DNA of 64,000 nucleotides from Elusimicrobiota bacterium (GTDB lineage: Bacteria; Elusimicrobiota; Elusimicrobia; Elusimicrobiales; UBA9959), in contig JACQWV010000061.1 of the NCBI GenBank assembly GCA_016209085.1, positions 21,710 through 85,709 of the forward strand. Direction: 5' to 3'. Position numbers and translations under genes: made by a program. A model generated the notes under the pieces. That model was not told the DNA's origin and ran no database searches. It saw only the letters and a program-made list of their open reading frames with translations. This document shows positions 1 to 63,634 of the stretch, in pieces (position 1 is the first letter of the stretch; every line of letters begins with the position of its first letter).

Positions 1-2
1 GT

Positions 3-788: not shown

Positions 789-828
789 TTTTCAGTTTCA
801 TTCCGACTAATTTAATGAAGAAATCAGT

Positions 829-2544: not shown

Positions 2545-2546
2545 AC

Positions 2547-2647: not shown

Positions 2648-2679
2648 AGAGAAAATAATTTACAGAAAGATTTGAAAAT

Positions 2680-5341: not shown

Positions 5342-5344
5342 AAA

Positions 5345-6580: not shown

Positions 6581-6652
6581 TTCCCAGATCCATGGATAAT
6601 GCGGTAAGCTGAAAAAAGCGGATACCAAGATTCAAATGAGGATAAAGGCTCC

Positions 6653-7972: not shown

Positions 7973-8964
7973 TAGTTGAAGAATGGAAGAAACGGATCGC
8001 TTGTGTGACGGGAGCCTCCGGTATGGTGGGGAGCCGGATTGTGCAAAGTCTTCTTCAACAGGGATATACAGTACGAGCCCTCACCCGAAGAAAGGATTTG
8101 ACGCTTTCGGGTGTTGATATGTCGGAACAGCGTCTCCGACGCCCCAGGTGCATGGGGCTCTGCGACATGCACTACGGTGATATTCGTGACGAATCAGTTC
8201 TAAAGTCTTTTTTGAATCAGGCGAATATTCTCTTTCACTGCGCCGCCGAATTGAAAGATGAATCAAGAATGTGGGATGTGAACGTTGCAGGAACGGAAAA
8301 TCTGCTTCGGTTGATACCGGGGGCTGGCATTACATATTTCTGCTATTTAAGCAGCGCAGGTGTTGTCGGTAAAACGGAGAGGCCCATTGTTGATGAGACA
8401 TCTCCCTGTAATCCCAGAAATATGTATGAACGTACGAAGTGGGAGGCAGAGAAGCGCGTTGCTAAAGGTGTCAACGGTTGTTGTGTGGTGGTCCTCCGGC
8501 CCACAAATGTGATAGATGAAAGGCGGTCTGGCGCCCTCGTGCTGCCGATGCGGAGCGGGTGGGCTGATTACCTCAAGATATTACTCAAGGGCGGAGAAAA
8601 CGCACACGTCATACATGCCGACGATGTCGCTGCTGCTGCATTGTATTTAATATCACACGCATCGGAAAACCCTCAGTGCTTTTTTGTCTCGTGCGATCAT
8701 GAACCTATGAATACATTTGCTGGAATATGGAAGCTCTATAAGAATTTCGAGCGAGCGGGCTCTTTTGATGAGAGCGGCCCGATGGTAGTGCATCTTCCTG
8801 TTGCCTTCCCCCACATGCTCCGGACCGTGATGCGCGGCGCATCGAACCGCGGCGACACCGTTTATTCTTCAAAAAAGCTGCTCCGTCATGGGTTCGTCTT
8901 TCCCTTGGGCTTGAAGGGAGCGATCAGACAAGTTATAGAGGAAAGGGGAAAGGTGACCCTATGA
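7969..8964 (+). CDS. NAD-dependent sugar epimerase/dehydratase (SDR)
   Basis: GASGMVGSRIV Rossmann motif and YERTK (YxxxK). The ATGA overlap with the upstream gene suggests translational coupling. Confidence 0.75.
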   Translation: MIVEEWKKRIACVTGASGMVGSRIVQSLLQQGYTVRALTRRKDLTLSGVDMSEQRLRRPRCMGLCDMHYGDIRDESVLKSFLNQANILFHCAAELKDESRMWDVNVAGTENLLRLIPGAGITYFCYLSSAGVVGKTERPIVDETSPCNPRNMYERTKWEAEKRVAKGVNGCCVVVLRPTNVIDERRSGALVLPMRSGWADYLKILLKGGENAHVIHADDVAAAALYLISHASENPQCFFVSCDHEPMNTFAGIWKLYKNFERAGSFDESGPMVVHLPVAFPHMLRTVMRGASNRGDTVYSSKKLLRHGFVFPLGLKGAIRQVIEERGKVTL

Positions 8965-18182: not shown

Positions 18183-18281
18183 TTGTCATTGATGCCAGAA
18201 GCGGCAATCTGAAGGTTAATTTTTTATCTTCGGGAGAGTGCGCATATCAAAGAAATTTTTTTACTATTACAGTATAAAAAT

Positions 18282-18330
18282 CTTCCAAATCTTTCAGGTT
18301 TTTATGTTTTCGTCCAGTTTTATATTCCTT
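18282..18330. repeat. 49-bp direct repeat, copy 1 (left flank of the DUF4143 cassette)
   Basis: CTTCCAAATCTTTCAGGTTTTTATGTTTTCGTCCAGTTTTATATTCCTT matches 19797..19845 at 48 of 49 nt. The minus strand reads ...DFTKEYKTGRKHKNLKDLEDFYTVIVKKFL*. Confidence 0.9.
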
Positions 18331-18528
18331 GGTAAAATCGTAAATGCTCACTGAAGCACGTCACTTTTGTGGGAATGACAACGGGATTCGCTGAATATTT
18401 ACTAAAAAAGTTTTGACAAATTAACTTTTACCTGCAATAATTATATACTGAGCTTTGCAGAAATGGTAAATCCTCACTAAAATAAAAAAAGAAGTCGGGT
18501 TAATGGGGTAAAGGGATGGAGAGTTTTT

Positions 18529-18583
18529 ATGGAAGTAACATTTCCAAAAATGGGCTAAAAATGGAATTTGTATTTCCAAAAAA
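18529..18583 (+). promoter_or_regulatory. two tandem TGGAA-N7-TTCCA palindromes upstream of the DUF4143 ATPase gene
   Basis: ATGGAAGTAACATTTCCAAAAA (18529..18550) and ATGGAATTTGTATTTCCAAAAAA (18561..18583) are spaced 32 bp apart and end 21 nt before the ATG. Confidence 0.45.
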
Positions 18584-18604
18584 TACTTTATATAATATAG
18601 CATC

Positions 18605-19759: not shown

Positions 19760-19796
19760 TTCTAAACGAATTTCTTTGCAATTAAAGTGTAGAAAC

Positions 19797-19845
19797 CTTC
19801 CAAATCTTTCAGGTTTTTATGTTTTCGTCCAGTTTCATATTCCTT
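19797..19845. repeat. 49-bp direct repeat, copy 2 (right flank of the DUF4143 cassette)
   Basis: See 18282..18330. The minus strand reads ...FKEYETGRKHKNLKDLEGFYTLIAKKFV*. Confidence 0.9.
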
Positions 19846-19988
19846 AAAGTAAAATCTTATTATACAAGTTTTAGTTTTATGGGTAAAATTTAATTTGTTA
19901 TAATAAAACTGCAGTGGTTAGTGGCGAGTGACGAGTGGTTAGTAACTAATCACTGACCACTACGCCACTGATGTTAAAGGAGGAAACT

Positions 19989-21074
19989 ATGGCGATTAAA
20001 ATAGGCATAAACGGTTTCGGAAGAATAGGAAGGCTGGTTGCGAGGGCGATTTTTGAACGAAATGACAGGAATCTGGAGCTTGTGGCTGTAAACGACATAA
20101 CTGACGCAAAAAGCAATGCCCATCTTTTTAAATATGATTCGGTGCACGGCCAGTTCCCGGGAGAAGTAAAAGCCGTAGGAGAAGACGCTATTTCAGTAAA
20201 CGGCAAAATAGTCAAAGTGTTGAAGAAAAAGGACCCTTCGGAACTTCCGTGGAAAGACCTTGGGGTTGAGATTGTGGTGGAATCCACAGGGCTTTTCACT
20301 GTTAAGAAGGATGGTGTAAACAAAAAAGGCAAGGAAGTGAAAGGCGCTGAAAATCACATCACAAAAGGCGGGGCAAAAAAGGTCATAATATCGGCTCCGG
20401 CCGAGGGCGAGGACCTTACCATAGTCATGGGCGTTAATGAGGACAAATACGACTCGCAGAACCACCACGTTGTTTCAAACGCTTCCTGCACCACCAACTG
20501 CCTGGCTCCTGTGGCAAAGATAATTCATGACAAATGGGGCATTGAAAAAGGCCTGATGACCACCATACACGCTTACACAAATGATCAGAAGGTGCAGGAT
20601 ATGGCTCATTCGGATTTAAGGCGCGCAAGGGCGGCAGCCCTGTCAATGATACCCACTTCCACCGGAGCGGCGAAAGCCATAGGGCTTGTAATACCTGAAC
20701 TCAAAGGAAAACTTGACGGGTTTTCCATACGTGTGCCTCTTCCGAACGTCTCCCTTGTTGACCTTTCCGCTCTTGTCTCAAAAACTGTGACTGCTGAGGA
20801 AATAAACGCGGCATTGAAAGAAGCGGCTGGTGGGAAATTTAAAAATATTCTTGGATATACGGAAGAACCGCTTGTATCCATAGATTTTAACCATTCTCCC
20901 CTGAGCGGAGTGGTTGACGGGAAAAGCACAAAGGTCATAGGCGGAAATTTTGTCAAGGTTCTTGCTTGGTATGACAATGAATGGGGTTATTCCTGCCGGG
21001 TGATTGACCTTGTGCTTTACATGAGTAAGCAGAAGTCAGAAGTCAGAGGACAGAAGTCAGAAATTAGAAATTAG
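19989..21074 (+). CDS. gap: glyceraldehyde-3-phosphate dehydrogenase, type I
   Basis: Start moved to the ATG after [16 protein letters not shown] and the [12 protein letters not shown] active site are present. The last ~16 residues are encoded by a tandem word repeat. Confidence 0.95.
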
Positions 21075-24087: not shown

Positions 24088-25668
24088 TCATTTCATTACT
24101 TTGTTTTCAAAAGCTCTTATTATTTCAGAGAGTTGTTCCGGGTTTTTAGCCGACAGCAGTTTTTTTCTTAGGGTCAGGTTTGATATGAGGCCGGAGAGTT
24201 GAGAGAGGATGTTTAACTGAAAGGTCGGCTCATTGTAAGGAGTCAGTATTATAAATATGAGTTTTACGGGCTGGTTGTCAGGCGAGGGAAAATATATGCC
24301 GTGCTGGCTTTTGCCGATGGAAAGGAGCGGTTTATTCAGGGATTCCAGCCTTGCGTGGGGGAAAGCGGTCTGGTGTCCGAGAGCGGTTGAAAAATTCGTT
24401 TCCCTTTTTATTATGGCGTTTACGGCCGCTTCTTTGTCAAACATGGGATACGAAGCATGCAGTCTGGCAGCGAGATATTTTATCGTCTCAAATCTGCCTG
24501 TGGCTCCTGTGGCGTCAAGATTCAGCTCTAAGGCTTCTTTTACCAGTATCCTGCTCAGAAGTATCGGCGGGGCTTTTTCAAATTCGTCCCTGATTTCCCC
24601 TGCCAGTTCTTCAAGCAGGTCTTCCATTGTAAGAAGGCCTGTGATTTCTCCTCTGGAATTTTTGACCAGAGCTATCTGTATGCGTTTTTCCTGTAATTCC
24701 CTGAGCGCTCTTTCGGCTGAAATATCCTCTGATATGGAATGAATTTCCCTCTGGAGTTTTTCAATATCCGGAACAGCGCCTCCGGCGCCCCATGTGCCGG
24801 AGGCTATGCCGACGGCCGGGTTCTCGCGCTTTAACTCTAAGTCTAAAAACGACAGGGATATGTCCTTGAAATGAATAAAGCCGAAAATATCTTCCGGGGA
24901 TGCGCGAGCCAGAGGATATCTGGAAAGTTTCTTTTCTTTTATTATGCTGAGGTTTTCAATCCACGGTTTATCCGCCGAGAGATATACTATGGAATTTTTG
25001 GGAGTCATTATTTCTTTGACCTTGGTGCGGCCGAAGTCAAAAAGATTTTCAAACATCATGAGTCTGCCCAGGGATATTCTCCCGTGCTCCTGGGACTGGC
25101 CGAGAATCATTCTGAGCTCTTCTTCGGAATGAAGCAGTTCGCTTTCAGACGGTTTTATGCGGAAAAGCTTCAGAATGAAATTGGCGCTTGTGTTTATGAA
25201 AAGCATCGGGTAATAGGCAAGCCGGTAGAATATGTTAAGAGGCACAGCGCACAACAGGGTCGTCTTTTCAGGAGTCATTATGGCCATGTATTTCGGCACC
25301 TGCTCTCCTATTATGACGTGCAGCGCCGTTATTATGATGAATGCCAATCCGAAAGAGATGGAATACGTGATTGTTTTGGATAAAGGGAGGCTGAAATATT
25401 CAAAAAACGGATGTATTAATTTAGCCAGCGCAGGCTCTCCTATCCATCCAAGACCAAGGCTCGCGGCGGTGATGCCTAATTGTATGGCTGAAAGGTATCC
25501 GTCTAAGTGCTGGACCGCGTTTTTTGCGATTTTGGCTATCTGGTTTCCCTTTGAGGACAATTCTTCAAGCCTTGTGAATCTTACTTTGACTATGGCGAAT
25601 TCAGCCAGAACGAAAAAAGCGTTAAGGAGAAGAAAAATTAAAGCGGCAAGGAAGGCAAGATAATCCAT
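24088..25668 (-). CDS. CNNM/CorB-type DUF21-CBS-CBS protein fused to a C-terminal PTS EIIA(Ntr)-like domain
   Basis: Start moved to MDYLAFLAAL because the track start overlaps tRNA-Leu. The N-terminus is a DUF21 TM domain, followed by a CBS pair. The C-terminus (ALGHQTAFPHARLESLNKP...VKLIFIILTP) resembles PtsN/EIIA-2. Confidence 0.7.
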   Translation of the reverse strand: MDYLAFLAALIFLLLNAFFVLAEFAIVKVRFTRLEELSSKGNQIAKIAKNAVQHLDGYLSAIQLGITAASLGLGWIGEPALAKLIHPFFEYFSLPLSKTITYSISFGLAFIIITALHVIIGEQVPKYMAIMTPEKTTLLCAVPLNIFYRLAYYPMLFINTSANFILKLFRIKPSESELLHSEEELRMILGQSQEHGRISLGRLMMFENLFDFGRTKVKEIMTPKNSIVYLSADKPWIENLSIIKEKKLSRYPLARASPEDIFGFIHFKDISLSFLDLELKRENPAVGIASGTWGAGGAVPDIEKLQREIHSISEDISAERALRELQEKRIQIALVKNSRGEITGLLTMEDLLEELAGEIRDEFEKAPPILLSRILVKEALELNLDATGATGRFETIKYLAARLHASYPMFDKEAAVNAIIKRETNFSTALGHQTAFPHARLESLNKPLLSIGKSQHGIYFPSPDNQPVKLIFIILTPYNEPTFQLNILSQLSGLISNLTLRKKLLSAKNPEQLSEIIRAFENKVMK

Positions 25669-25679
25669 AAGGAAATATT

Positions 25680-25761
25680 TGCGCGGGGTGGGACTTGAAC
25701 CCACATGCCTTTCGGCATACGCCCCTCAAACGTACGCGTATACCAATTCCGCCACCCGCGC
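25680..25761 (-). tRNA. tRNA-Leu (anticodon GAG), class II with long variable arm
   Basis: Hand-folded. Acceptor GCGCGGG/CCCGCGC, anticodon stem UACGU/GCGUA, loop UUGAGGG, variable hairpin GCC-GAAA-GGC, T arm GUGGG-UUCAAGU-CCCAC, discriminator A. No encoded CCA. Confidence 0.85.
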
Positions 25762-31022: not shown

Positions 31023-31094
31023 GGGATTGCCGTAAGCGGCGACGATAACGGATATTTTCATAAAAAAATATGGACCCGACCGGGATTGAACCGG
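31023..31094. repeat. 72-bp direct repeat, copy 2 (truncated GT2 5' end plus 3' end of the intact tRNA-Ala)
   Basis: See copy 1. It encodes a relic MKISVIVAAYGNPVDK* on the minus strand. Confidence 0.9.
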
Positions 31095-31143
31095 CGACCT
31101 TACCCATGCCAAGGGTACGCTCTCCCAGCTGAGCTACGGGCCC
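31071..31143 (-). tRNA. tRNA-Ala (anticodon GGC)
   Basis: Hand-folded, 73 nt. Acceptor GGGCCCG/CGGGUCC with the G3:U70 Ala identity pair, anticodon loop UUGGCAU, T loop UUCAAUC. No encoded CCA. Confidence 0.9.
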
Positions 31144-33453: not shown

Positions 33454-33679
33454 TTACTGAGCTTCGCAGAAATAATGGATACGTTGGAGGCTCAGATTTG
33501 GATTGGATGCAAGGCGCGACGAATAAGCATAGCGTCTGCTATGTGAGTGAGGAGCAACGCAGCAGACGGCCAAATATGAGCCTCCCCTTTCCCTTGAAGG
33601 GAAAGGGGCTGGCCGCTTTTCTGTCTCGCTCAAAAATCGGCTCAGCCAGCGTACCCATTATTTCTGCGAAGCTCAGTAA
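33454..33679. repeat. nested-palindrome element (MITE-like or structured leader) upstream of glgP
   Basis: A perfect 23-bp inverted repeat ACTGAGCTTCGCAGAAATAATGG (33456..33478 and 33655..33677) encloses two further stems. These are GGAGGCTCAGATTTGG/CCAAATATGAGCCTCC and the hairpin CCCCTTTCCCT-TG-AAGGGAAAGGGG. Confidence 0.8.
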
Positions 33680-33692
33680 TGGAGGAACATTC

Positions 33693-36257
33693 ATGAAAAT
33701 AACTTCATTTAACGTTGTTCCCAATCTTCCGGAAAATTTAAAAGCATTGAACGAGCTGACTGAAAACATGTGGTTTACATGGAACTGGGACGCCATAATG
33801 CTGTTCGTCGGAATTGACGAGGATTTGTGGCACAGGTCGCACAGGAATCCCAAATGGATGCTGGGCGCTCTTCCGCCCGAAAGGTTTGAAGCGTTGAGCA
33901 GGGACCAGGCCTTTCTTGAAAAGCTGGAAAAAATTAAGAATAAGTTTGACGCTTATATGAACTGCCCAGACACATGGTTCAGCAAAAACTGTCCTCCTGA
34001 CATGAAGGATTTCACGGCGGCTTACTTTTCCATGGAATACGGAATCGGGGAAGGACTTCCGATATATTCAGGAGGGCTCGGCATGCTTTCAGGGGACCAT
34101 TTGAAAACAGCGAGCGAGCTGGGTATTCCTGTCTTTGCGGTGGGCTTGCTGTACAGGAAGGGCTATGTCCAGCAGGTTCTGAACAGGGATAACTGGCAGG
34201 TGGAAAGGTATCCGGAGAATGACTGGTACAACATGCCGGTTCAGATAGTCAATGATTCTTCAGGCAATCCGCTCCGCATAGATTTGAACCTGGCCGGCGA
34301 AAACGTGCAAGTCGGGATATGGCGCGTTCCTGTGGGCAGGAATTCGCTGTTTCTGCTTGACACGAACCTTCCTGAAAACAAGGCTCATGTCAGGAGCATA
34401 ACCGAACAGCTTTACGGAGGAGACAGGGAAAACAGGATATGCCAGGAAATAGTTTTAGGCGTAGGCGGGGCCAGGGCTCTTGAGGCAATGGGCGTCAATC
34501 CCTCGGTTTACCATGTGAATGAAGGTCATTCGGCTTTTCTGCTTTTTGAACGGATAAGGCAGTTCATGAAAAACAGGAAGATTTCTTTTGAAGAGGCCAA
34601 GGAAGCGGTCTGGAGTTCCTCGGTTTTTACCACACACACCCCGGTCATAGCCGGCAATGAATATTTTGATTTTGAGTTGGTGCGGAAATACATGGAGTCG
34701 TATTCCGGGGAACTCGGAATATCATGGCCCGAGTTCCTTGAAATCGGAAAGGAGGAACCTTCTTCAACTACTTTCTGCATGACGATTCTCGCGTTGAGAT
34801 TATGCGCTTTTCTGAACGCTGTAAGCCGCCTGCACCGCGATACGACGCGGGACATGTGGCAGAAAATATGGTCCGGGCTTGCGAAATATGAAATTCCGAT
34901 TTACGGCATAACCAACGGGGTGCATACCTGCTCATGGATAAGCCACGAGCATCTGGATTTATATAAAAAATACGCGCTCAGGGACAGTCAGAGCATTGAA
35001 GACCTGCCTGAGAACTGCGACTGGCAGAAAATCATGGACATTGACGATAGGGAATTCTGGGAAGTTCACATGTCCAGAAAGAATAAATTGATAAACATGA
35101 TAATCCGGGAGAGAATGCAGAGGCAGTATAAGCGGCTTGGAGCCGACGCCACTGTTCTGGAGGAAATAAAAAACGTCTTAAATCCCGGCTATCTGACCAT
35201 AGGCTTTGCCAGGAGATTCGCCTCTTATAAAAGGGCCAATCTGATTTTCAGGAATCCCGACAGACTTCTTGAAATAGCTGCCAGCGACAAAATGCCGGTG
35301 CAGTTCGTTTTCGCGGGCAAGGCGCACCAGGCCGACGCTTTCGGCAAGGAAATAATAAAAGAAGTGGCCAGATACAGCATGGACAAGAAGTTCAAGCAGA
35401 GAATTGTTTTCGTGGAAGATTATAACATGAACGTCGCGCGATACATGGTGCAGGGAGTCGACGTGTGGCTTAATAATCCGGTAAGACCTCTTGAGGCTTC
35501 GGGAACAAGCGGGATGAAAGCGGTCATTAACGGCGTTTTAAATCTCTCCGTTCTGGACGGCTGGTGGATGGAAGGATATTCCTCGCAGACAGGATGGGCC
35601 GTCGGGGGCCTGGAAAATTACAGGGACGACGCTGAAAGGGATTATGTGGAATCGGAATCCATATATAATCTCCTGCAAAAAGTCATAGCCCCGCTTTATT
35701 ACGACAGGGGCGAGGACGGAATACCGCACGGCTGGATAAAAATGATGAAAAACTCAATCGTCAGGCTCGTTCCCGAATTCAACACAAACCGGATGCTTAA
35801 AGAATACTGGGAAAAATTTTACGGCCGCGCCTATTCAATGAACAAGAGATTGCTGGACAACGGCAAAGTCATGGAGCTTGCAAAATGGCGGAAGAAAATC
35901 AGAGACAACTGGCAGAAAGTCAAAGTCGTTCTTGAACCTTTCAAACCCATGATGGAAATACATTCGGGCGCGAAAATCCCGGTAAAAGCGCGCGTGTGGC
36001 TTGGAGATTTGACGCCTGAAGACGTGGACGTGCAGGTTCACATAGGAAGCATTGACGGGGACGTTTTTTTCAAACAAGGGACTTCTTTCAGCATGGGGTG
36101 CGAGTCTCATCAGGGGGACGCCTGGATTTTCAGGGGCGACATAGTATGCGTAAAAAGCGGCAAGCACGATTTTGCCGTAAGGGTCGTTCCCAAACATCCT
36201 GACATCGTGCATCCCTACATGCCTTTGTTCATTAAATGGAATGACGAGGGTAGTTGA
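33693..36257 (+). CDS. glgP: alpha-glucan (glycogen/maltodextrin) phosphorylase, GT35
   Basis: Start moved to the ATG after GGAGG (MKITSFNVVPNLPENL...WFTWNWD). EASGTSGMK is the PLP-lysine motif. The track start 33498 would translate the palindromic leader. Confidence 0.9.
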   Translation: MKITSFNVVPNLPENLKALNELTENMWFTWNWDAIMLFVGIDEDLWHRSHRNPKWMLGALPPERFEALSRDQAFLEKLEKIKNKFDAYMNCPDTWFSKNCPPDMKDFTAAYFSMEYGIGEGLPIYSGGLGMLSGDHLKTASELGIPVFAVGLLYRKGYVQQVLNRDNWQVERYPENDWYNMPVQIVNDSSGNPLRIDLNLAGENVQVGIWRVPVGRNSLFLLDTNLPENKAHVRSITEQLYGGDRENRICQEIVLGVGGARALEAMGVNPSVYHVNEGHSAFLLFERIRQFMKNRKISFEEAKEAVWSSSVFTTHTPVIAGNEYFDFELVRKYMESYSGELGISWPEFLEIGKEEPSSTTFCMTILALRLCAFLNAVSRLHRDTTRDMWQKIWSGLAKYEIPIYGITNGVHTCSWISHEHLDLYKKYALRDSQSIEDLPENCDWQKIMDIDDREFWEVHMSRKNKLINMIIRERMQRQYKRLGADATVLEEIKNVLNPGYLTIGFARRFASYKRANLIFRNPDRLLEIAASDKMPVQFVFAGKAHQADAFGKEIIKEVARYSMDKKFKQRIVFVEDYNMNVARYMVQGVDVWLNNPVRPLEASGTSGMKAVINGVLNLSVLDGWWMEGYSSQTGWAVGGLENYRDDAERDYVESESIYNLLQKVIAPLYYDRGEDGIPHGWIKMMKNSIVRLVPEFNTNRMLKEYWEKFYGRAYSMNKRLLDNGKVMELAKWRKKIRDNWQKVKVVLEPFKPMMEIHSGAKIPVKARVWLGDLTPEDVDVQVHIGSIDGDVFFKQGTSFSMGCESHQGDAWIFRGDIVCVKSGKHDFAVRVVPKHPDIVHPYMPLFIKWNDEGS

Positions 36258-36371
36258 AAATCCTCCCAAATAATGTATAATATAATGTGCCGGGTTTTGT
36301 AAATCCCGGTGCTTTTGTCGGTACTTTTCCGGCAGGAGCTAAGTTAAGTAGAAAGCGAGGTATAGTAAGAA

Positions 36372-46263: not shown

Positions 46264-47117
46264 AAGAACTGATAGACAAAGCAAAAGAATTGCTGAAAGA
46301 AAAAAAGGTTGAAACAGTCATCGGCTACAGGGAAATCAGAGGCTGTGTCGTGCCTGCTTATGTTGACAGTCCCTGTGACGCTGACTGTCTTATTTTTGAC
46401 AAAAGATGCGTGTATAATCTTGCGAATTACCTGAAATGGTTTAAAAACAAAAACGTCGCCCTTGTTTTAAAAGGCTGCGACGCAAAGTCCATAAACGTAT
46501 GGCTCCAGGAATTCCAGATTAAGCGCGAGAACATTTTTATAATAGGAGTTGAATGTTACGGCGTTATGAATGAAAAATCCGCAGATGCCGGATTATCCGA
46601 TAAATGCGGGCATTGCGAGGCGCACGTTCCAAATATATACGATGCGGTTATAAAACATCAGGGGGATAAAAAAGAATCTGTTCAAGGAGAACCATTCAAA
46701 GACATTCAGGAATTTGAAAAACTGCCGCACGATGAAAGGTGGGATTTCTGGAAAAAGCAGTTTGAAAAATGCATAAAATGCTATGCGTGCAGGGAAATAT
46801 GTCCCATGTGCTATTGCAAAGAGTGCATAGTTGAACGCAACATCCCGCAGTGGATAATGTCTTCCCCGTCTGTAAAAGGAAATTTTGAATGGAACATGGT
46901 AAGGGCTTTTCACCTGGCCGGCAGGTGCGTTGAATGCGGGGAATGCGAAAGAGCGTGTCCCGTGAACATTCCGCTTATGAAATTAAATAAAAAGCTGATA
47001 AAAGAAATGAAAGAATTATTTGACTATTCAGCGGGACAGAAAGAGGACGTTAAGTCGGCTATTGACGATTTTTATCCAGAAAAAGACATAAAAATAGATG
47101 ATAAGATGATAAGATGA
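46260..47117 (+). CDS. 4Fe-4S dicluster protein, FlxC-like
   Basis: CIKCYACREICPMCYC and CVECGECERACP motifs. Its position in the cluster matches FlxC. Confidence 0.6.
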   Translation: MKELIDKAKELLKEKKVETVIGYREIRGCVVPAYVDSPCDADCLIFDKRCVYNLANYLKWFKNKNVALVLKGCDAKSINVWLQEFQIKRENIFIIGVECYGVMNEKSADAGLSDKCGHCEAHVPNIYDAVIKHQGDKKESVQGEPFKDIQEFEKLPHDERWDFWKKQFEKCIKCYACREICPMCYCKECIVERNIPQWIMSSPSVKGNFEWNMVRAFHLAGRCVECGECERACPVNIPLMKLNKKLIKEMKELFDYSAGQKEDVKSAIDDFYPEKDIKIDDKMIR

Positions 47118-48187
47118 TAAGTGAAATGAAAAAATTTATTATCAGCAAAAATGAGTTAAAGAAAATTCTGGCCGGGATTGTTGCGGAGAATATAAAACTC
47201 ATTGCTCCGGTTTCAAGGGATAACGCTTTTTTTCTGGAAGAGGTCAGTGATGCAGAAAAAATCGCATGGGATTATTCAAATGTCGTAAAACCGGTTAAGG
47301 AGCATATTTTCCCGATGAGGGAAGTTCTTTTGGATTTCGGCAGGGGGACAGATCCCCCTGCACTTGATGAGCCAGAGGCTCGTTCTTCCGGCAAAGAGAA
47401 AAATCCGGCAGGGAACATGCCTCCGGTTAAAGAACAGGTAATATTCGGCTTAAGGCCCTGTGACGCGCGCTCCCTTCTTGTATTGGATAAACCATTCTTG
47501 CAAGAGAAATACGTTGATTCGTATTATAAGGAAAGGCGGGAGAAAACCACCCTTATTGCAATGGCGTGTCTTAATCCGGAAAAAACCTGCCTGTGCTCTT
47601 CTTTTGAAAACGGCGGTCCTTTTTCTTCTGCCGGAAGCGACGTTTTGTGCGTGCAAACCGGGCAGGACGAATTTTTGGTTGAAATCTTGTCTGAAAAAGG
47701 GGAAAAAATATTTAAAAATCCGTCTTTTGCGCAACCTTCCGGAGAAGTTCTGAAAAAGTTGGAAAATCTTAAGGCGGATTCAGAGGCAAAAATCTGCAAG
47801 GCCCTTAAAGTTCCTGAAAACCTGCGGGAGCTTTTTGAAGCAGGTACTTGGGAAACAGAATCCCTTTCCTGCATTGCGTGCGGAATCTGCAGGTATCTGT
47901 CAGCCACCTGCTATTGCTTCAACATTACGGACGAGTTTGAACAGCGTCTCAGGTACTGGATACCGTGCAGTTTTAAAAACTACACAAAAATGACTTCAGG
48001 CGAGATTTCCAGGGAGAAAAAAAGCGCAAGATTCAAGCACTGGTATTTTCATAAATTTTCCTATCACAAGGACAATTTCGGGGAATATCTGTGCGTGGGC
48101 TGCGGCAGGTGCATAAAATACTGCCCCGTAAAAATAGATTTTACCGAAGTGCTTGGAAAAATAGGAAACAGCAAACAGGAACAGTGA
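47114..48187 (+). CDS. Fe-S protein, FlxB/AsrA/HydB-like
   Basis: FGLRPCDARS, CIACGICRYLSATCYC and CVGCGRCIKYCP motifs. The start may instead be 47126. Contains an in-frame repeat at 47339..47392. Confidence 0.6.
   Translation: MISEMKKFIISKNELKKILAGIVAENIKLIAPVSRDNAFFLEEVSDAEKIAWDYSNVVKPVKEHIFPMREVLLDFGRGTDPPALDEPEARSSGKEKNPAGNMPPVKEQVIFGLRPCDARSLLVLDKPFLQEKYVDSYYKERREKTTLIAMACLNPEKTCLCSSFENGGPFSSAGSDVLCVQTGQDEFLVEILSEKGEKIFKNPSFAQPSGEVLKKLENLKADSEAKICKALKVPENLRELFEAGTWETESLSCIACGICRYLSATCYCFNITDEFEQRLRYWIPCSFKNYTKMTSGEISREKKSARFKHWYFHKFSYHKDNFGEYLCVGCGRCIKYCPVKIDFTEVLGKIGNSKQEQ
47339..47392 (+). repeat. GC-rich multi-hairpin repeat, copy A (intragenic, sense)
   Basis: GGCAGGGGGACAGATCCCCCTGCACTTGATGAGCCAGAGGCTCGTTCTTCCGGC. 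It matches the reverse complement of 61367..61420 at 51 of 54 nt. Confidence 0.9.
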
Positions 48188-56967: not shown

Positions 56968-58263
56968 ATGAAAAAATTTATTTACATTCTACCCCTGCTG
57001 GTTGGTTTCAATTTCAACGTTTTTTCAGGCCCGGCTTCTGAAAATCCGATTCAGCCTGCTGTTTCGGCCGTTCGTATAACTCACGGCACCGATTGCGGAC
57101 AATGCCGCCCTCTTCCGGAAGAGCTTATTTCCGGGATATCAGGCAATTTCGGCCTCTCCGCCGAAGGCGGACAATTTAATGTTTCTGCGCCGGCTGAAAT
57201 CCCCGGTGTTGAGACCCTGACGCCCCAGCCTTCTTTTGCAAAAACAGATTTTTCCGGCATATACGATTATTATTTCGGCTATATCAACGAGATGATTGTA
57301 AAAGCGATTGACGCCTCCCAGAAATCCTTTGAGGGCGCGGTATACAGCATTACCATGAAGGACATTCCTGACGCTCTCATAAAAGCCAAGGAAAGGGGAA
57401 TCAAGGTGCGGCTTATAATAGACGAAGCGCACATTTATCCGAGAATGGACGCGCAGATAAAAAAACTTATTAATGCGGGAATAGACCTAAGGTCGCTTCG
57501 CGGGACCAGAACTTACGGCGTAATGCACAACAAAATCACGATACACGACGGCGAGCTCGTCACCGTGGGCTCTTATAACTGGACGTTTGGCGCTACTTTT
57601 TCAAACTATGAAAATGCGCTGGTGTTGCGCCATCCCATTTATGTTACCGGCTATAATAAATACTGGGACTGGATGTGGTCAAAAGCCAGAAAACTTTCCG
57701 ATGGACCTTCGCCCGAAGTGCCGGAGGGGCATTACGGGACTCCGCCCCAGGACACCAAGCCCATAATGAATCTGAACGGCACTCCTGTGCCGGCGTATCT
57801 TTTCTCCCCCGGCTCTACTTCTCAGGAAAGGCTTGCCAAGATTATAGATTCCGCAAAAGGCTCTATAGACGCTTTGACTTACACCTTTTCTTCAAAAGTT
57901 CTTGCGGATGCGTTAATCAACGCCAAAAAAAGAGGGCTCAAAGTGAGATTTCTGATAGACAAGAACAGGGGCAAGGAATCCGTAATGACCAAGTATCTTT
58001 TTGACAACGGGGTGGAAATGAAATGGGGGATAGGCAGAAACGGCAAAGGCGCCCTGCACAGCAAATTCGCCATACTGGACGGAGCTCTTCTGGAAACAGG
58101 CTCTTTCAACTGGACCGAGAACGCGAGCATCAATTCTTTTGAAAACATGGTTTTTGTAAACGATACCAAGGTGCTAAAAGCCTATCAGACAAAATACGAC
58201 ACTCTTTTTACCGGCGCGGAAGTTCCCACTGCTGCAGATTTTACAATAGAGCCTGCCGAGTAG
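56968..58263 (+). CDS. secreted phospholipase D-superfamily protein with two HKD motifs
   Basis: Signal peptide. HNKITIHDGELVTVGSYNWT and HSKFAILDGALLETGSFNWT. Confidence 0.8.
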   Translation: MKKFIYILPLLVGFNFNVFSGPASENPIQPAVSAVRITHGTDCGQCRPLPEELISGISGNFGLSAEGGQFNVSAPAEIPGVETLTPQPSFAKTDFSGIYDYYFGYINEMIVKAIDASQKSFEGAVYSITMKDIPDALIKAKERGIKVRLIIDEAHIYPRMDAQIKKLINAGIDLRSLRGTRTYGVMHNKITIHDGELVTVGSYNWTFGATFSNYENALVLRHPIYVTGYNKYWDWMWSKARKLSDGPSPEVPEGHYGTPPQDTKPIMNLNGTPVPAYLFSPGSTSQERLAKIIDSAKGSIDALTYTFSSKVLADALINAKKRGLKVRFLIDKNRGKESVMTKYLFDNGVEMKWGIGRNGKGALHSKFAILDGALLETGSFNWTENASINSFENMVFVNDTKVLKAYQTKYDTLFTGAEVPTAADFTIEPAE

Positions 58264-59425: not shown

Positions 59426-61048
59426 ATGGAAAACCAAGAAAAAGGCTACCTCGCCCTTGTTTTGCACGCTCACCTTCCTTTTATCCGTCATCCCGAGTAC
59501 GAGGATTTTCTGGAAGAGGACTGGTTTTTTGAAGCAATGACGGAAACCTACATCCCGTTGCTTGACATTTATGAAAGGCTTACCAGGGAAAACATAGATT
59601 TCAGAATAACCATGTCCCTTACCCCGCCGCTGTGCGCGATGATGACCGACGAGCTTTTGCGCGAGAGATTCAGGAACTATCTGTACCAGCGCGTAGAACT
59701 TTCCGAAAAAGAAACCGTAAGATTAAGAAATACCCAGTTCTACGAATCCGCAAAGATGTATGAGGGAAAGTTCAAAAGGATACGGGAGCTTTACCAGGAT
59801 TACTACGGGGAGAACATTCTCAACGGCTTTAAAAAATTCCAGGACATGGGAAAACTGGAAATAATAACCTGCGGCGCCACGCACGGGTTTCTTCCCCTGC
59901 AGGTAAAAAAAGAAGCCGTCCACGCGCAGGTTAAAACCGCGGCGGACGACTACAGGAGATGCTTCGGCAGAAATCCCAGAGGAATATGGCTTGCGGAATG
60001 CGCTTACAACCCGGGAGACGACGCGTATCTCAAGACCAGCGGCATAAGGTATTTTTTCCTTGAAACCCACGGCATAATTTACGGAAGTCCCAGACCCAGA
60101 TACGGGGTTTACGCTCCGGTGTATTGTCCGAGCGGGGTGGCGGCTTTCGGAAGGGACATGGAATCGGCCCATCAGGTATGGAGCGCGGAAATGGGTTATC
60201 CCGGCGACTACAGGTACAGGGAATTTTACAGAGACGTGGGTTATGACCTTGAATACGATTACGTAAAGCCCTACCTGCACTCGGACGGCGTCAGGAGAAA
60301 CATCGGCATAAAATATTACAAAATAACCGGCAGGGTTCCGTTAAGCGAAAAGGCTCCTTACAATCCGTGGGAGGCTAAGGAAACCGCCGCTGGGCATGCG
60401 GGCAATTTTATGTTCAACAGGGAAAGACAGATAGAACATCTTTACGGATTTTTGGGAAGGAAGCCAATACTCGTTTCAATGTACGACGCCGAGTTGTTCG
60501 GCCACTGGTGGTATGAAGGCCCGGATTTTATAGAATACCTGTTCAGAAAGATTCATTACGACCAGAAGACCATAAAACTCATAACCCCGAGCGAATATCT
60601 CCAGATTCAGCCCGATAACCAGGTGATACAGCCCTCAATGTCTTCATGGGGGGATAAAGGCTACAACGAGGTTTGGCTGAACGGCACGAACGACTGGATG
60701 TACAGGCACCTTCACAAAGCGGTTGAAAGAATGATTGAAATGGCAAATAAATTTCCGGATGTCGACGGCGTTCTGAAGAGGGCTTTGAATCAGTGCGCAA
60801 GGGAGATATTTCTTGCCGCTTCTTCGGACTGGGCTTTTCTTATGACGGTCGGCACTGCCAAGACGTATTCCACAAAAAGGTTCGTGGACCACGTACACCG
60901 TTTTTTCGCTCTCCACGGCCAGATAATGTCAAATTCAATAGATGAGAATTTTCTGAAAGACATTGAATGGAAGGATAACGTTTTTCCCGCCATTGACTAC
61001 CGGGTTTATTCCTCAACCCGCGCACCCGATAATATCTTTACCAGGTAG
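59426..61048 (+). CDS. GH57 1,4-alpha-glucan branching enzyme (DUF1957 type)
   Basis: GYLALVLHAHLPFIRHPE, EEDWFFEAMTETYIPLL, CGATHGFLP and DAELFGHWW. Confidence 0.85.
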   Translation: MENQEKGYLALVLHAHLPFIRHPEYEDFLEEDWFFEAMTETYIPLLDIYERLTRENIDFRITMSLTPPLCAMMTDELLRERFRNYLYQRVELSEKETVRLRNTQFYESAKMYEGKFKRIRELYQDYYGENILNGFKKFQDMGKLEIITCGATHGFLPLQVKKEAVHAQVKTAADDYRRCFGRNPRGIWLAECAYNPGDDAYLKTSGIRYFFLETHGIIYGSPRPRYGVYAPVYCPSGVAAFGRDMESAHQVWSAEMGYPGDYRYREFYRDVGYDLEYDYVKPYLHSDGVRRNIGIKYYKITGRVPLSEKAPYNPWEAKETAAGHAGNFMFNRERQIEHLYGFLGRKPILVSMYDAELFGHWWYEGPDFIEYLFRKIHYDQKTIKLITPSEYLQIQPDNQVIQPSMSSWGDKGYNEVWLNGTNDWMYRHLHKAVERMIEMANKFPDVDGVLKRALNQCAREIFLAASSDWAFLMTVGTAKTYSTKRFVDHVHRFFALHGQIMSNSIDENFLKDIEWKDNVFPAIDYRVYSSTRAPDNIFTR

Positions 61049-63634
61049 TATTCCCGCTTTTTCGCTTATTTTCTCAGACAAATCAATGAATTCCTGATTC
61101 TCGCCCGCATTTCTGGAAATATCAATCAGGAAATTCTGGATGTGAAATATCAGGTCATCCATCCGGAGCATTTTTGAAATTTCAAGAATGCTGCCGACCA
61201 TTTTCAGATTTTCAGCCGTCGGGCTTGTTTTAAAATCTATCAGTATTTTTAAAAACTTCAGCAGGGTTTCGGCCTCCGGCTGTATCTGGACTTTGATTCC
61301 GTGTTTTGTCAATTTTTCCGAAAATCCGATAATCTTTTCAAGCAAGGCCGGAACAGCCGCACCGCGGCCGGAGCAACGAGCCTCTGGCTCATCAAGTGCA
61401 GGGGGCTCTGTCCCCCTGCCACAGGTGCCGTGAGTTATACGAACGGCCTCTTCCCGGATGTGTATAAACTCGTTAAGATAAGAATTTATCAAATATTTTG
61501 CGCATCTTTTTATTTCATCGGCAGGATCCCTGCCCGGCTCAAAACCGTTCCCCGACAAATGCTCCATTAACAGAAAATGCTCTTCAATAGCGCTTTCAAA
61601 CGCGGCTCTGTGTTTTGTCTGGATGTTACGGGAAACAAGTTTAAATACGGACAGTTTCTCTGAAAAAGGCAGAGTCTGAAGGTCGACTGCCGTAAATCCT
61701 TTGATTGCTTGCGGGGTTTTATCGGCGTCCAAGAGAGATACGGCGTTTTCAAAAACTTTCTGCGCGTCGTTTTTTGAGAGGTATATGGCCGGAAGAGACG
61801 TCGCCGTTTCGGAGAGACATGCAAAAGTCTTTCTGAATTCTTCTCCTGTCGTTTTATTCCTGAGATTGAGAATGCCCGCCGCTGACATGTTTTTCTTGAT
61901 TAATTTTTCAAAGCCGGCAACGTAGCCGTAGAGATAAGGAAATTCTTTGTCCTGATAAATCGTTCTAATCAAAAAAGCCGCGAAGATATGCTCCAAAGAA
62001 GGGACTGAAGAAATTACAAGTCTTTCATAAATTTCCAGGCCGTTCGCAGCGCTCGCGGCACATGGGGGTCGGGTGGCATAGCGCCCGACACTTGATGAGC
62101 CAGAGGCTCGTTGTTCCGCGGCAGCGCCGCTGTTCCGTCCGTTTCCATATGAGGTAAAATTTGAAGGAGCGGTTTCAAGCAGAGAAAGAAATCCTTTTTC
62201 CAGGCCTTTATAGCCCAGATCCTCTGCTGTTTCAACGGCTTTTGCCGCGTATTTCAGATTCTGGACCGCTTCTATGCGGGATATGTCTGAAAAGAACCAG
62301 CCGCAGCTTGTAAACATGTACATGGAGTTCTTCTGCATTTCAAGCAGTTTAACGGCTTTGATTTTCTCGGCGCGTTCAAGAGTCCTTTCGGAGTTTCTGG
62401 AGAAAAACGAGTTGAAGTTCTCTTCTGACCTGTCAATCATCAGGTTTATGTAATCGTTTCTTGCCTGCCAGACATCCCTAAAAAGCGGAGCCGCCTCTAC
62501 TTTGTAAATTTCATACAATGCGTCCCTGAGCCAGTTCATGGCGGCTCTTAACGGATGCCTCCAGTTGAGGTGAAAATTTTTTTCCTTTCCGCACTCGCAG
62601 CCGCCTTTCCATCTTCTGACTCCGTGGAAACAGCTCCATGAAGCGCCTTCTCCGTCCGGGCCTTTTTTGAGTTCAACTTCTAAGTGGGGTTTGTGGTCGC
62701 TGAGGAACAGGGAAAGGCTTGTCGTTTCTATGCCGTATTTTTTTAATTCGTGCCTGAACGCATGCGCAATCGTCATATCCGCGAATTTATGGTGATGCCC
62801 GTAGCTTTCCCCGTCCGCCGCTATCAGCACGAGCTGGTCCCGGGTCGGGTCCGTATAACAGAGGGAAATTCTCCGGACAAAATTTTCGGAGTTTTTCAGA
62901 GCGTCTTCAAACGAGACTGCCCCGGAAATTCCGGCATCGTAAAAGAAAACCGCTATGCTTCTGTGTTTGATTCTGTTTCCTTCGGCATCCCTGTCGCGCC
63001 AGGCATAAGGCTTTTTCGGGTCAATGCTTCCGTTTGAAACATCTGTCCATTTATTCGTTTCAGGAGACTTTATTTTTTCAGCCTGATGGGGGGACAGAAT
63101 CACGTATTTCATTCCGTGGTCAATCAGGAGTCTGAGAGTGTCTTCATTGACGGCTGTTTCCGGCAGCCACATCGCCTCGGGCCTGAAGCCGAACCTGTAT
63201 TCAAAATCCTTTATGCCCCACACAATCTGGGTTACCTGGTCCTGAAAACTCGCCAAAGGCATTATTATGTGATTATATGCCTGGGCTATCGCGTTCGGAT
63301 GTCCGCTTGAATCTTTTATCCTCCCGACCGTGTTTACAATCTGCTCATGGATGAAAGGATATTCTTTTTCCAGCCAGTTCAAAAGCGTGGGGCCGAAATC
63401 AAAATTCAGATATTCATAATTGTTTACTGCTTCTATTATTTTCCCTGCATTATCGGTTATTCTGGCATAAAGATTGGGGATGTAACATTCCCTTGATATT
63501 CTCCGGTTCCAGTTGTCATAAGGATAGGCAGAAGGATCAAAGTCAGGCTCGCCGGTCCAGGGATTTTCCCGCGGCGGCTGATAAAAATGCGCGTGAACCG
63601 CTAAACATTTTTTCGCTTGTCTGGTTTCCGGCAT
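61013..63634 (-). CDS. GH57 family glycoside hydrolase (DUF3536 type)
   Basis: LAVHAHFYQPPRENPW N-terminus. WLPETAV and DGESYGHH motifs. 873 aa. Carries two in-frame repeat copies. Confidence 0.8.
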   Translation of the reverse strand: MPETRQAKKCLAVHAHFYQPPRENPWTGEPDFDPSAYPYDNWNRRISRECYIPNLYARITDNAGKIIEAVNNYEYLNFDFGPTLLNWLEKEYPFIHEQIVNTVGRIKDSSGHPNAIAQAYNHIIMPLASFQDQVTQIVWGIKDFEYRFGFRPEAMWLPETAVNEDTLRLLIDHGMKYVILSPHQAEKIKSPETNKWTDVSNGSIDPKKPYAWRDRDAEGNRIKHRSIAVFFYDAGISGAVSFEDALKNSENFVRRISLCYTDPTRDQLVLIAADGESYGHHHKFADMTIAHAFRHELKKYGIETTSLSLFLSDHKPHLEVELKKGPDGEGASWSCFHGVRRWKGGCECGKEKNFHLNWRHPLRAAMNWLRDALYEIYKVEAAPLFRDVWQARNDYINLMIDRSEENFNSFFSRNSERTLERAEKIKAVKLLEMQKNSMYMFTSCGWFFSDISRIEAVQNLKYAAKAVETAEDLGYKGLEKGFLSLLETAPSNFTSYGNGRNSGAAAEQRASGSSSVGRYATRPPCAASAANGLEIYERLVISSVPSLEHIFAAFLIRTIYQDKEFPYLYGYVAGFEKLIKKNMSAAGILNLRNKTTGEEFRKTFACLSETATSLPAIYLSKNDAQKVFENAVSLLDADKTPQAIKGFTAVDLQTLPFSEKLSVFKLVSRNIQTKHRAAFESAIEEHFLLMEHLSGNGFEPGRDPADEIKRCAKYLINSYLNEFIHIREEAVRITHGTCGRGTEPPALDEPEARCSGRGAAVPALLEKIIGFSEKLTKHGIKVQIQPEAETLLKFLKILIDFKTSPTAENLKMVGSILEISKMLRMDDLIFHIQNFLIDISRNAGENQEFIDLSEKISEKAGILPGKDIIGCAG
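61367..61420 (-). repeat. GC-rich multi-hairpin repeat, copy B (intragenic, sense relative to its host gene)
   Basis: The reverse complement reads GGCAGGGGGACAGAGCCCCCTGCACTTGATGAGCCAGAGGCTCGTTGCTCCGGC. Confidence 0.9.
62068..62120 (+). repeat. GC-rich multi-hairpin repeat, copy C (intragenic, antisense relative to its host gene)
   Basis: GTCGGGTG-GCATAG-CGCCCGAC followed by the identical 24-nt core CACTTGATGAGCCAGAGGCTCGTT (62089..62112). Confidence 0.8.

Follow-up and report, generated by a model that had tools for sequence, protein, structure and literature searches.

The RPEs of Rickettsia are small palindromic repeats that lie in-frame within many unrelated, often housekeeping, genes (Ogata et al. 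2000, summarised in PMC10969869 and PMC3733652). They occur in both orientations and also between genes, and they add short peptides compatible with the fold of the host protein (PMC10969869, PMC3733652). In-frame residence within genes is known for these Rickettsia RPEs and for GTAG and CGTC REPs (PMC10969869, PMC3733652), the intragenic members of the two REP groups having been described by Di Nocera et al. 2013 (PMC3733652). The REP superfamilies are defined by a GTAG or CGTC tag at one end of the hairpin (PMC3733652), and compensatory changes are common in REP and REPIN hairpins (PMC3116915).

We find insertions of a comparable kind in a metagenome-assembled genome (MAG) of the Elusimicrobia. 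Within the window, by which we mean the whole 64,000-nt stretch of DNA that was analysed, a gene encoding an 873-aa GH57 protein with DUF3536 (61013..63634, minus strand; NCBI MBI4656339.1, MAG Elusimicrobia) contains two copies, B and C, of a repeat. These are probably members of a small, non-autonomous, hairpin-forming interspersed repeat family of Elusimicrobia that resembles REP/BIME sequences in anatomy and RPEs in behaviour. We regard the family as a new member of an established class of selfish DNA, not as a novel ribozyme.

A reading of the letters alone (hereafter the sequence-only reading) had noticed an identical 24-nt core in three copies, and the core, CACTTGATGAGCCAGAGGCTCGTT, indeed occurs three times in the window against 0.00 expected from 100 dinucleotide shuffles, none of which contained it: in copy A at 47361-47384 (plus strand), in copy B at 61373-61398 (minus strand) and in copy C at 62089-62112 (plus strand). 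The limits given to the element were too narrow, since B and C are 103-nt composites in which a 51-nt unit containing the core is nested within a related second unit. The count of three copies likewise fell short: covariance-model searches of the window added three units in other genes, giving at least six loci with eight units. All of these loci lie in open reading frames, distributed over five unrelated genes, four being sense and two antisense to the host gene.

The basic unit spans about 48-51 nt and consists of two separate hairpins rather than a single long palindrome. Its parts follow in the order hairpin 1, GCAC, YTG, hairpin 2 and a (C)TGTTCCG tail. Hairpin 1 comprises 5-8 bp closed by a 6-nt loop (RCAYAG), and hairpin 2 comprises 5-9 bp with a 3-4-nt loop (RGA, or ATA in AT-rich lineages); GCAC is invariant at the 3' foot of hairpin 1. 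The unpaired RCAYAG, GCAC, RGA and UGUUCCG are conserved across lineages ranging from 38 to 67% GC. Two subtypes can be distinguished, type I and type II, the 24-nt core belonging to type II, and both B and C combine the two, with type II nested in type I. Some variants (L002 6569, L013 779) contain a (C)UGAUGA box as in hammerheads; a K-turn formed from UGAUGA was considered and rejected on inspection, as sheared pairs would require a GA/AG that is missing from the opposite strand of hairpin 2.

Copy B occupies 61346..61448 on the minus strand and is bounded by GGCC at either end, as delimited by orthologue alignment, boundaries and six-frame translation. Its inner 51-nt type II unit (61368..61418, minus strand) was matched by covariance models at 75.3 and 73.7 bits and is supported by its fold: hairpin 1 (GCAGGGGG-ACAGAG-CCCCCTGC) is followed by AC, hairpin 2 (UUGAUGAGCC-AGA-GGCUCGUUG) and a CTCCGG tail. 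The outer type I unit is split around it. The 5' half (61419..61448, minus strand) carries hairpin 1, GCCG..CGGC, followed by AC and CTGTGG, and shares 25 identical nucleotides with 57066-57090; the 3' half (61346..61367, minus strand) carries hairpin 2, GCCGC-GGT-GCGGC, and the tail TGTTCCGGCC. Copy C (62038..62140, plus strand; orthologue alignment, boundaries) follows the same nested plan, with an inner 51-nt type II unit at 62068..62118 (plus strand; 76.8 and 75.9 bits) whose hairpin 1 is GTCGGGTG-GCATAG-CGCCCGAC. The stems that the sequence-only reading had described are thus present as written, both the first (CAGGGGG/CCCCCTG in B, GTCGGGTG/CGCCCGAC in C) and the 3' stem (GCCGC-GGT-GCGGC in B, GCGGC-AGC-GCCGC in C), the latter being hairpin 2 of the outer unit.

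The remaining loci are simpler. Copy A is a single 51-nt type II unit (47338..47388, plus strand), delimited by comparison with homologues, and forms a 17-aa in-frame insertion, in the sense orientation, in the gene for a Fer4_22 iron-sulfur protein (47114-48187). A 48-nt type I unit at 24772..24819 (minus strand) was found by covariance model R1, which had been built without it, at 34.7 bits (E 4e-8); it is a 16-aa in-frame insertion, again sense, in a CNNM/CBS transporter gene (24088-25704). Another type I unit, at 8123..8172 (minus strand; R1, 24.3 bits, E 5e-5), runs antisense within an ORF for an NAD-dependent epimerase (7969-8964, plus strand), as placed by ORF and Pfam; when this site is compared with solved structures, the homologues are distant and the region is of variable length. 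Finally, a variant type I unit at 57065..57118 (plus strand), identified by the 25-nt exact match to B and by covariance model R2 at 17.1 bits, has hairpin 1 as in the outer unit of B and a different hairpin 2, CGG-ACAATG-CCG. It lies sense in the N-terminal region of a PLD-like gene (56968-58263), the Pfam PLDc_2 match of which begins at aa 110.

Comparison with orthologues confirms the suggestion of the sequence-only reading that the two GH57 segments are insertions. Both are missing in 14/14 aligned orthologues of the GH57/DUF3536 protein, the nearest of which is 45-50% identical; these orthologues are about 815-820 aa long. The segment of copy A is missing in P0122 (73-76% identical) and in seven other homologues, with an empty site in L020, a relative 73% identical, and the segment at 24772 is missing in P0196 (61% identical) and six others. 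Relative to orthologues these are clean insertions of 99 nt (B), 99 nt (C), 51 nt (A) and 48 nt (24772). In the protein, B adds a net 33 aa in-frame at aa 730-762 in the sense orientation and C a net 33 aa in-frame at aa 500-532 in the antisense orientation, so that one gene carries the repeat in two opposed directions. The peptides quoted earlier for the copies proved correct on translation: ...GRGTEPPALDEPEARCSG... for B, which is sense to the minus-strand GH57 ORF, ...EQRASGSSSVGRYATRP... for the antisense C, and GRGTDPPALDEPEARSSG for A.

The inserts lie in regions compatible with the fold of their hosts, as do those of RPEs, namely in predicted loops of the GH57 protein, in a linker of variable length in the CNNM protein and, in a relative, between domains of PheT. 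In the AlphaFold model of the GH57 protein, pLDDT is below 50 in two stretches flanked by confident helices, 497-530 and 736-756, and the Pfam DUF3536 match ends at aa 501, where C is inserted. Inserts within genes would persist in the protein as extra, probably disordered, surface loops of 16-33 residues. Since the measured inserts all consist of whole codons without stops, translation by reading through them is the simple expectation. The mobile GC clusters and 'byp' elements of yeast mitochondria are comparable, being short, GC-rich, hairpin-forming inserts in coding sequence whose surrounding genome is richer in AT. The ribosome skips byps, which are thus free to break the frame, whereas the measured Elusimicrobia inserts are whole-codon and stop-free throughout.

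Beyond the window, the full two-hairpin unit was found at eight genome loci and four metagenome loci, in Elusimicrobia only; matches in other phyla comprised the core without hairpin 1. A scan of viral contigs for the core gave 0 matches, and the peptides of five frames, joined as one query, drew 17 candidates from an index of 5.8 billion proteins, none of them scoring. In the Elusimicrobia MAG WOVA01 (64% GC) units lie within PheT and PheS, as placed by ORF and Pfam, the PheT insert falling between the tRNA_bind and B3_4 domains. The copies of this genome are read in at least three different frames, and in AT-rich relatives the units form intergenic, nested and tandem arrays. Occurrence in both orientations, in unrelated genes, in intergenic arrays and nested in one another, together with presence or absence between relatives, is the behaviour of an interspersed selfish repeat.

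The likeness to RPEs is therefore one of behaviour: units lie in-frame in several unrelated genes, are absent from orthologues, occur in both orientations and are found between genes too. The insertions in the GH57 gene (twice), the Fer4_22 gene and the CNNM/CBS gene were checked against orthologues, and the units in PheS and PheT were placed by ORF and Pfam. There are also differences. The host belongs to another phylum, and an inspection by eye, confined to the described CGTC tag, reveals no evident sequence relationship. The Elusimicrobia unit has 48-51 nt and two hairpins, whereas RPE-1 measures about 100-150 bp and RPE-4 and RPE-6 are single CGTC-tagged hairpins; moreover, Elusimicrobia units nest in one another. 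Differences in phylum, unit length and tag make homology to RPE-1 to RPE-10 unlikely.

In anatomy the parallel is with the REP, BIME and REPIN sequences mobilised by RAYT/TnpA-REP tyrosine transposases, which likewise form short, imperfect, GC-rich hairpins, have a conserved foot tetranucleotide and a short tail, vary in their stems by compensatory changes, form mosaic clusters and occasionally reside in-frame in genes, where they encode about 20-30 residues. The palindromes of the Elusimicrobia family have the REP format (20-40 nt, GC-rich, variable stem, short tail); what is repeated, however, is two unlike hairpins in fixed combination, their loops conserved, and not one hairpin or an inverted REP doublet. 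Nor is the tag that of a REP: 20/20 aligned units carry GCAC (GTGC), none has GTAG, and CGTC appears only inside some 5' arms. No RAYT was found in the genome fragments searched, and the intragenic fraction, 6/6 window loci, also sets the family apart. The earlier statement that no named element has this architecture hence stands for the sequence family and falls for the class, which is REP/RPE-like.

The sequence-only reading had also proposed compensatory changes in the stems, to be judged once more copies were collected into a covariance model. They are borne out in both hairpins, where double changes preserve the pairing: 85% of cells are paired against 74% in shuffles, double-change cells number 31 against 9.5, and covariation reaches 0.247 against at most 0.104 for slid partners, figures that derive from an alignment fitted to the model and from copies that are not independent. 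Fold Z-scores are modest, from -1.4 to -3.9. The sense strand of type II units folds 3-8 kcal/mol better than its complement owing to G-U pairs in the invariant core; as this asymmetry is confined to type II and stems from that core, it is not independent evidence on whether RNA or DNA is the folded species. Two further pairings were considered and set aside. A pseudoknot between loop 2 and the tail (GGA/UCC, AGA/UCU, ATA/TAT) showed no covariation across copies on inspection, and an alternative fold of the type I unit at 24772, in which hairpin 2 pairs with the 3' arm of hairpin 1, is unconserved among other units of that type.

We propose that units are copied to many places in the genome, in either orientation and also into one another, and that within genes only stop-free insertions of whole codons would survive. 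The propagation machinery would recognise the hairpins in their folded form along with a small set of fixed, unpaired bases in the loop, foot and tail, which would account for the covariation of the stems, and the encoded peptide would not be under selection. Mobilisation may proceed, as proposed for REPs, through a folded single DNA strand acted upon in trans by an HUH/Y1-type (RAYT/IS200-like) enzyme, with the GCAC foot (GTGC on the other strand) in the role of the GTAG tag. No transposase was found beside any unit in about 180 kb of sequence, made up of 64 kb from the source genome and fragments of 2-13 kb from others, so the mobilising enzyme is purely inferred. The ORFs scanned with Pfam, comprising those flanking the L003, L008 and L013 units and a selection from the window and WOVA01, are housekeeping genes or have no Pfam match.

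If this account is correct, Elusimicrobia would be added to a short list of bacteria, Rickettsia and Opitutus among them, whose protein-coding genes have been colonised wholesale by a small palindromic repeat, a rare phenomenon; in Elusimicrobia the essential PheS and PheT are among the genes concerned. They would offer an independent case for the study of insertion tolerance, of the seeding of new protein loops and of an enzyme that moves tag-less REP-like hairpins. GC-rich inserts of 48-103 nt also inflate protein lengths and break Pfam matches, as at DUF3536, which is cut at the insert, and in this phylum they may mislead orthology calls and the assembly of MAGs.

A less probable origin is that of a classical MITE. 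The unit would then derive by deletion from an insertion sequence and would move as double-stranded DNA, through a DDE transposase whose GC-rich target of 3-4 bp (CGGC/CCGG) becomes duplicated. ERIC, Correia/NEMIS, Nezha and the Coxiella QMITE are bacterial MITEs that can become fused in-frame to genes; they are non-autonomous, present in tens to hundreds of copies, sometimes intragenic and sometimes flanked by target duplications (PMC10969869). Direct repeats of 3-6 nt do bound many Elusimicrobia units, such as CGGC...CGGC at A (empty site TGGT), CCGG...CCGG at 24772 and TCCGGC...TCCGGC at L010 5885, and units insert into one another at such motifs; were these repeats target-site duplications, a DDE-type rather than an HUH enzyme would be indicated. 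Not all units are so bounded, however: the flanking repeat is absent at 8123-8172, L010 1064 and L002 6569. Where present, the repeats overlap the base of hairpin 1, the GC part of the left one covaries with its partner in that hairpin, and the single informative empty site comes from a different species. Bacterial MITEs, moreover, usually exceed 100 bp and possess terminal inverted repeats that match those of an insertion sequence, typically over at least 10 nt, whereas the termini here share at most 4 nt (CCGG/GGCC, which is self-complementary). No insertion sequence with matching ends was seen.

It is tempting to speculate that the two-hairpin unit, beyond being a passive REP-like relic, is an element specialised for coding sequence, propagated by a novel enzyme or an RNA-level mechanism that reads the conserved bases of loop, foot and tail, and acting as a systematic source of new surface loops in the housekeeping proteins of Elusimicrobia. 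Units of 48 or 51 nt amount to whole codons, five of six core frames are open and 6/6 window loci are intragenic, observations that point in this direction; we regard the idea as improbable. In a stronger version, one strand could be an active RNA, for instance a new small ribozyme or protein-binding motif.

A functional structured RNA, be it a new self-cleaving ribozyme, a protein-binding motif or an mRNA-stability element acting in the transcripts that carry it, appears unlikely. The two covarying helices and the unpaired nucleotides conserved across lineages are what such an RNA would display, the folding advantage of the type II sense strand fits structure at the RNA level, and the CUGAUGA box of L002 6569 and L013 779, followed by a short GC hairpin, recalls a hammerhead. 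Nevertheless, two of six window loci are antisense to the host gene, B and C being opposed within one gene, and a self-cleaving insert would destroy essential PheS and PheT transcripts or that of the GH57 gene. The modest Z-scores and the lack of loop-tail covariation suggestive of tertiary pairing also weigh against it. The hammerhead was rejected: GAAA is replaced by UCGUU, the 3' side reading UCGUUG where a hammerhead has CGAAAC, a three-way junction bearing a cleavage-site helix is absent, and no hammerhead model matched either strand at E up to 10. Rfam 15 at gathering thresholds returned only tRNAs and rRNAs from the window and the 12 other loci, and cmscan of 61300-62200 at E up to 10 returned nothing relevant, the best sub-threshold match being Corio-PBP, whose 19.9 bits fall short of the threshold of 63.5. 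Stems that covary within a gene do not in themselves constitute evidence for a functional RNA. Of the earlier argument for structure over peptide, the implied novel functional RNA or ribozyme is accordingly not supported, while its other half holds good: what the copies share is nucleic acid, with frames and orientations varying.

That same variation bears on selection at the protein level, under which a binding or modification motif (GTxPPALDEPEAR) would have spread by recombination between genes. A and B share a frame and nearly the same peptide, and sense type I units have AVxIxxGT in common. Six-frame translation of the core, however, leaves only two of its five open frames in sense, so A and B would be expected to agree about half the time. 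C and 8123-8172 are antisense and encode unrelated peptides, the WOVA copies use several frames, units also occur in non-coding arrays, identity extends at the DNA level to synonymous positions, and the inserts are predicted to be disordered. As the unit is read in different frames and both orientations, the copies have nucleic acid in common rather than a peptide under selection; the peptide reading is largely refuted already and seems very improbable. Chance similarity or misassembly is the least credible of all, for although the source is a MAG, in which repeats can be mis-assembled, no shuffle produced a match, the two-hairpin unit is present in independent assemblies from different studies, and each insert lies in a long ORF that stays open and shows homology to either side of it.

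The repeats of the window probably belong to an interspersed, mobile or once-mobile, non-autonomous family of selfish repeats rather than to a cis-acting RNA. This reading draws on the many copies, which occupy unrelated genes as well as spacers and lie in both orientations, on their nesting and mosaic arrays, on presence/absence between relatives, on restriction to one phylum, and on hairpins that are conserved together with certain fixed bases of loop and foot.

When up to 3 mismatches were allowed, the 24-nt core (CACTTGATGAGCCAGAGGCTCGTT) was found at exactly three sites in the window and at none in 100 dinucleotide-preserving shuffles. Copy A (47361-47384, +) lies sense within ORF 47114-48187, encoding a Fer4_22 iron-sulfur protein, and contributes the peptide GRGTDPPALDEPEARSS. 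Copies B (approximately 61373-61398, -) and C (62089-62112, +) share the 873-aa ORF 61013-63634 (-; Pfam Glyco_hydro_57 and DUF3536), B being sense to it (peptide ...THGTCGRGTEPPALDEPEARCSGRGAAVP...) and C antisense (...GAAAEQRASGSSSVGRYATRPP...). The core, peptides and stems quoted by the sequence-only reading are all present in 61200-62300, but the limits it gave to the copies were too narrow: B and C also have in common AGGCCGTTCG...CGGCAC on the left and GCTGTTCCG on the right, and each forms a 103-nt block GGCC...G(G/T)CC (61346-61448, -, and 62038-62140, +). The two blocks form an inverted repeat pair within one gene, some 600-690 nt apart and with an identical core of 26 nt (ACACTTGATGAGCCAGAGGCTCGTTG), which could in principle be a substrate for inversion of the gene segment between them.

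Comparison with homologues demonstrates that these segments are insertions. The GH57 protein (NCBI MBI4656339.1, from an Elusimicrobia MAG) has homologues mostly of 815-820 aa, and when 14 of these (37-50% identity) are aligned to it every one shows clean 33-column gaps at aa 500-532 (copy C) and aa 730-762 (copy B); the possibility that GH57 orthologues already carry the segments is thus not borne out. The Pfam DUF3536 match ends at residue 501, precisely at insert C. In the AlphaFold model (mean pLDDT 77.5), values below 50 at 497-530 and 736-756 coincide with both inserts, each flanked by confidently predicted helices. Copy A corresponds to a 17-aa gap in 8 homologues, including one (P0122) at 73-76% identity whose source DNA shows the empty site, ...TTTTGGATTT joined directly to TGGTAAAA...; in the window ...TTTTGGATTT is followed by CGGCAGGGGG...CGTTCTTC and then CGGCAAAG..., a difference of 51 nt. 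In the CNNM/CBS transporter gene, an inserted unit lacking the core adds 16 aa (48 nt) compared with a 61%-identical homologue and 6 others. The four insertions that could be measured are 48, 51, 99 and 99 nt long.

A covariance model (R1) built from 12 core-containing copies recovered core-less units outside its own training set, several of them in other loci; those in the window lie at 24763-24824 (-; 34.7 bits) and 8117-8177 (-; 24.3 bits). The rebuilt model, run without filters, gave six loci in the window, all six within ORFs: antisense in an NAD-dependent epimerase (7969-8964), sense in the CNNM/CBS transporter (24088-25704), the Fer4_22 protein and a PLD-like protein (56968-58263), and once in each orientation in GH57/DUF3536. 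A BLAST search of the window with the copies as queries revealed a 25-nt exact identity between 57066-57090 (+) in the PLD-like gene and 61424-61448 (-) in the GH57 gene; it is the 5' half of a core-less unit in both, with different 3' hairpins, a pattern suggestive of recombination or modular shuffling among units.

Alignment of all units revealed a common plan. Hairpin 1 has a 5-8 bp stem and the loop RCAYAG; an invariant GCAC closes and follows the stem, and YTG comes next. Hairpin 2 has the loop RGA, or ATA/AAAA in AT-rich genomes, and is followed by (C)TGTTCCG(G). In type II units, which carry the core, hairpin 2 is UUGAUGAGCC-NNN-GGCUCGUUG, of 9 bp including three G-U pairs; in type I units, without the core, it is a short GC stem (CGCC/GGCG, CGUC/GACG or CCGC/GCGG). 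In B and C a 51-nt type II unit is set between CTGKGG and hairpin 2 of a type I unit, and 48 + 51 = 99 nt agrees with the measured 99-nt insertions. The 3' stem described by the sequence-only reading is thus hairpin 2 of the outer type I unit. Nesting is general: in loci L001 and L004 hairpin 1 of a type I unit encloses a reversed type II unit, in L010 units adjoin fragments of other units, and in L013 (715-1110, -) roughly six units are arrayed in the intergenic DNA upstream of pyruvate:ferredoxin oxidoreductase genes. In this array, loop 1 of two units houses a further hairpin element of a different kind (AGGCTATGCC...GGACGGCG), and a variant hairpin 2, CUGAUGAACC-AAAA-GGUUCGUUG, covaries with the core.

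When one genome per species was scanned for the exact pattern, the core together with its hairpin 1 turned up only in Elusimicrobia MAGs (five WOVA01 contigs, DAOWCC01, DAOWGR01 and PEXN01); three matches in other phyla, to the core alone, were due to chance. Scanning of metagenomes yielded four further real loci, along with four chance matches, and scanned viral contigs held no core. Hosts have a GC content between 38 and 67%, which unit GC tracks in part. In WOVA01, a MAG of 64% GC, units separate the tRNA_bind from the B3_4 domain of PheT, sit within the class II core of PheS (a match some 26 residues longer than the profile), and also occur in ORFs encoding RarA/MgsA, MTHFR and a methyltransferase. 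PheS and PheT are neighbours on WOVA01000006.1 (locus L010; 6399-7667 and 3961-6573), with at least one unit each, and another unit lies over the PheS start region (7627-7687). In AT-rich relatives (L003, L008, L013 and L016) units are intergenic, often in tandem nested arrays beside ordinary metabolic genes.

Insertion, family membership, covariation and independence of orientation are established by these comparisons; as to how the family spread, we tentatively favor a REP/RAYT-type mechanism. As proposed for REPs and RAYTs, a trans-acting enzyme would act on a folded single DNA strand, with the hairpins and fixed unpaired bases as its recognition features and the GCAC foot (GTGC on the other strand) in the position of GTAG in REPs. 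The main rival is a DDE-type MITE duplicating 3-4 bp of CGGC/CCGG-like targets. Many units are indeed bounded by short direct repeats; however, these overlap the base of hairpin 1 and are absent at some units, and the unit has no real terminal inverted repeats, by which it also departs from MITEs as a class. No transposase gene was found in the genome fragments examined. The family works like REP/BIME elements and behaves like RPEs, but lacks the tags of the GTAG and CGTC REP superfamilies.

The sequence-only reading had taken conserved folding as a sign of selection on a folded nucleic acid (RNA or ssDNA). Its stems do covary: in a 19-sequence alignment of related copies, fitted to the model and its structure and scored otherwise than by the R-scape statistic, standard pairs fill 85.2% of cells versus 74.3% in shuffles, cells changed on both sides number 31 versus 9.5, and the covariation score is 0.247 versus 0.084, none of 500 shuffles reaching 0.247. 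Partners slid by 1-3 columns give at most 0.104, double changes affect five hairpin 1 pairs and three hairpin 2 pairs, and an earlier MAFFT alignment pointed in the same direction. In single-sequence folds the two hairpins are the minimum-energy structure, with modest z-scores (-1.4 to -3.9). The type II sense strand folds 3-8 kcal/mol better than the antisense, an asymmetry that type I lacks; as it comes from G-U pairs of the invariant core, it hints only weakly at strand-specific folding. The observation stands and the interpretation placed on it is supported in part; compensatory stem changes and in-frame residence are both documented for this class of repeat. REPIN hairpins frequently show compensatory changes (PMC3116915), and Rickettsia RPEs and GTAG/CGTC REPs in Opitutus, Thauera and others reside in frame within genes; there a single unit or a dimer contributes 20-30 residues, and some genes carry two such insertions (PMC3733652, PMC10969869). 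The repeats provide no evidence of a new ribozyme or class of RNA; no Rfam family matched, and a hammerhead was rejected, its CUGAUGA-like box occurring without GAAA.

Survival of units inside genes is explained by filtering, since the core is open in five of six frames, units are GC-rich and insertions measure 48, 51, 99 and 99 nt; frame-breaking insertions in PheS or GH57 would go unseen. Within the literature collection searched, no paper joined Elusimicrobia with such repeats, and the family appears undescribed: an unusually dense new case of selfish DNA in housekeeping genes, with six loci in five genes over 64 kb.

Several side observations were made. A 23S-5S rRNA operon in L011 is followed, about 1.1 kb downstream, by a type II unit (1700-1900; also L018 and L019), set amid several other hairpins sharing CATAAAGAG loops, possibly another repeat family. 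At 36260-36337 in the window, directly downstream of ORF 33498-36257, weak covariance-model matches on both strands (8.6-9.7 bits) cover a hairpin CCGGG-ATTTACAAAA-CCCGG followed by CAC, possibly a terminator or else a unit in decay. Of two tRNA genes (Rfam tRNA, 52 and 61 bits; 25680-25761 and 31071-31143, -), the first is directly upstream of the CNNM/CBS gene, whose annotated start overlaps it by 25 nt. Low-GC stretches (0.31-0.36 versus a window mean of 0.44) comprise 1-8000, a surface-polysaccharide cluster with radical SAM/B12 enzymes, glycosyltransferases, a Wzx-like flippase and a Wzy-like protein, and 18000-20000, with an AAA_14/DUF4143 ATPase.
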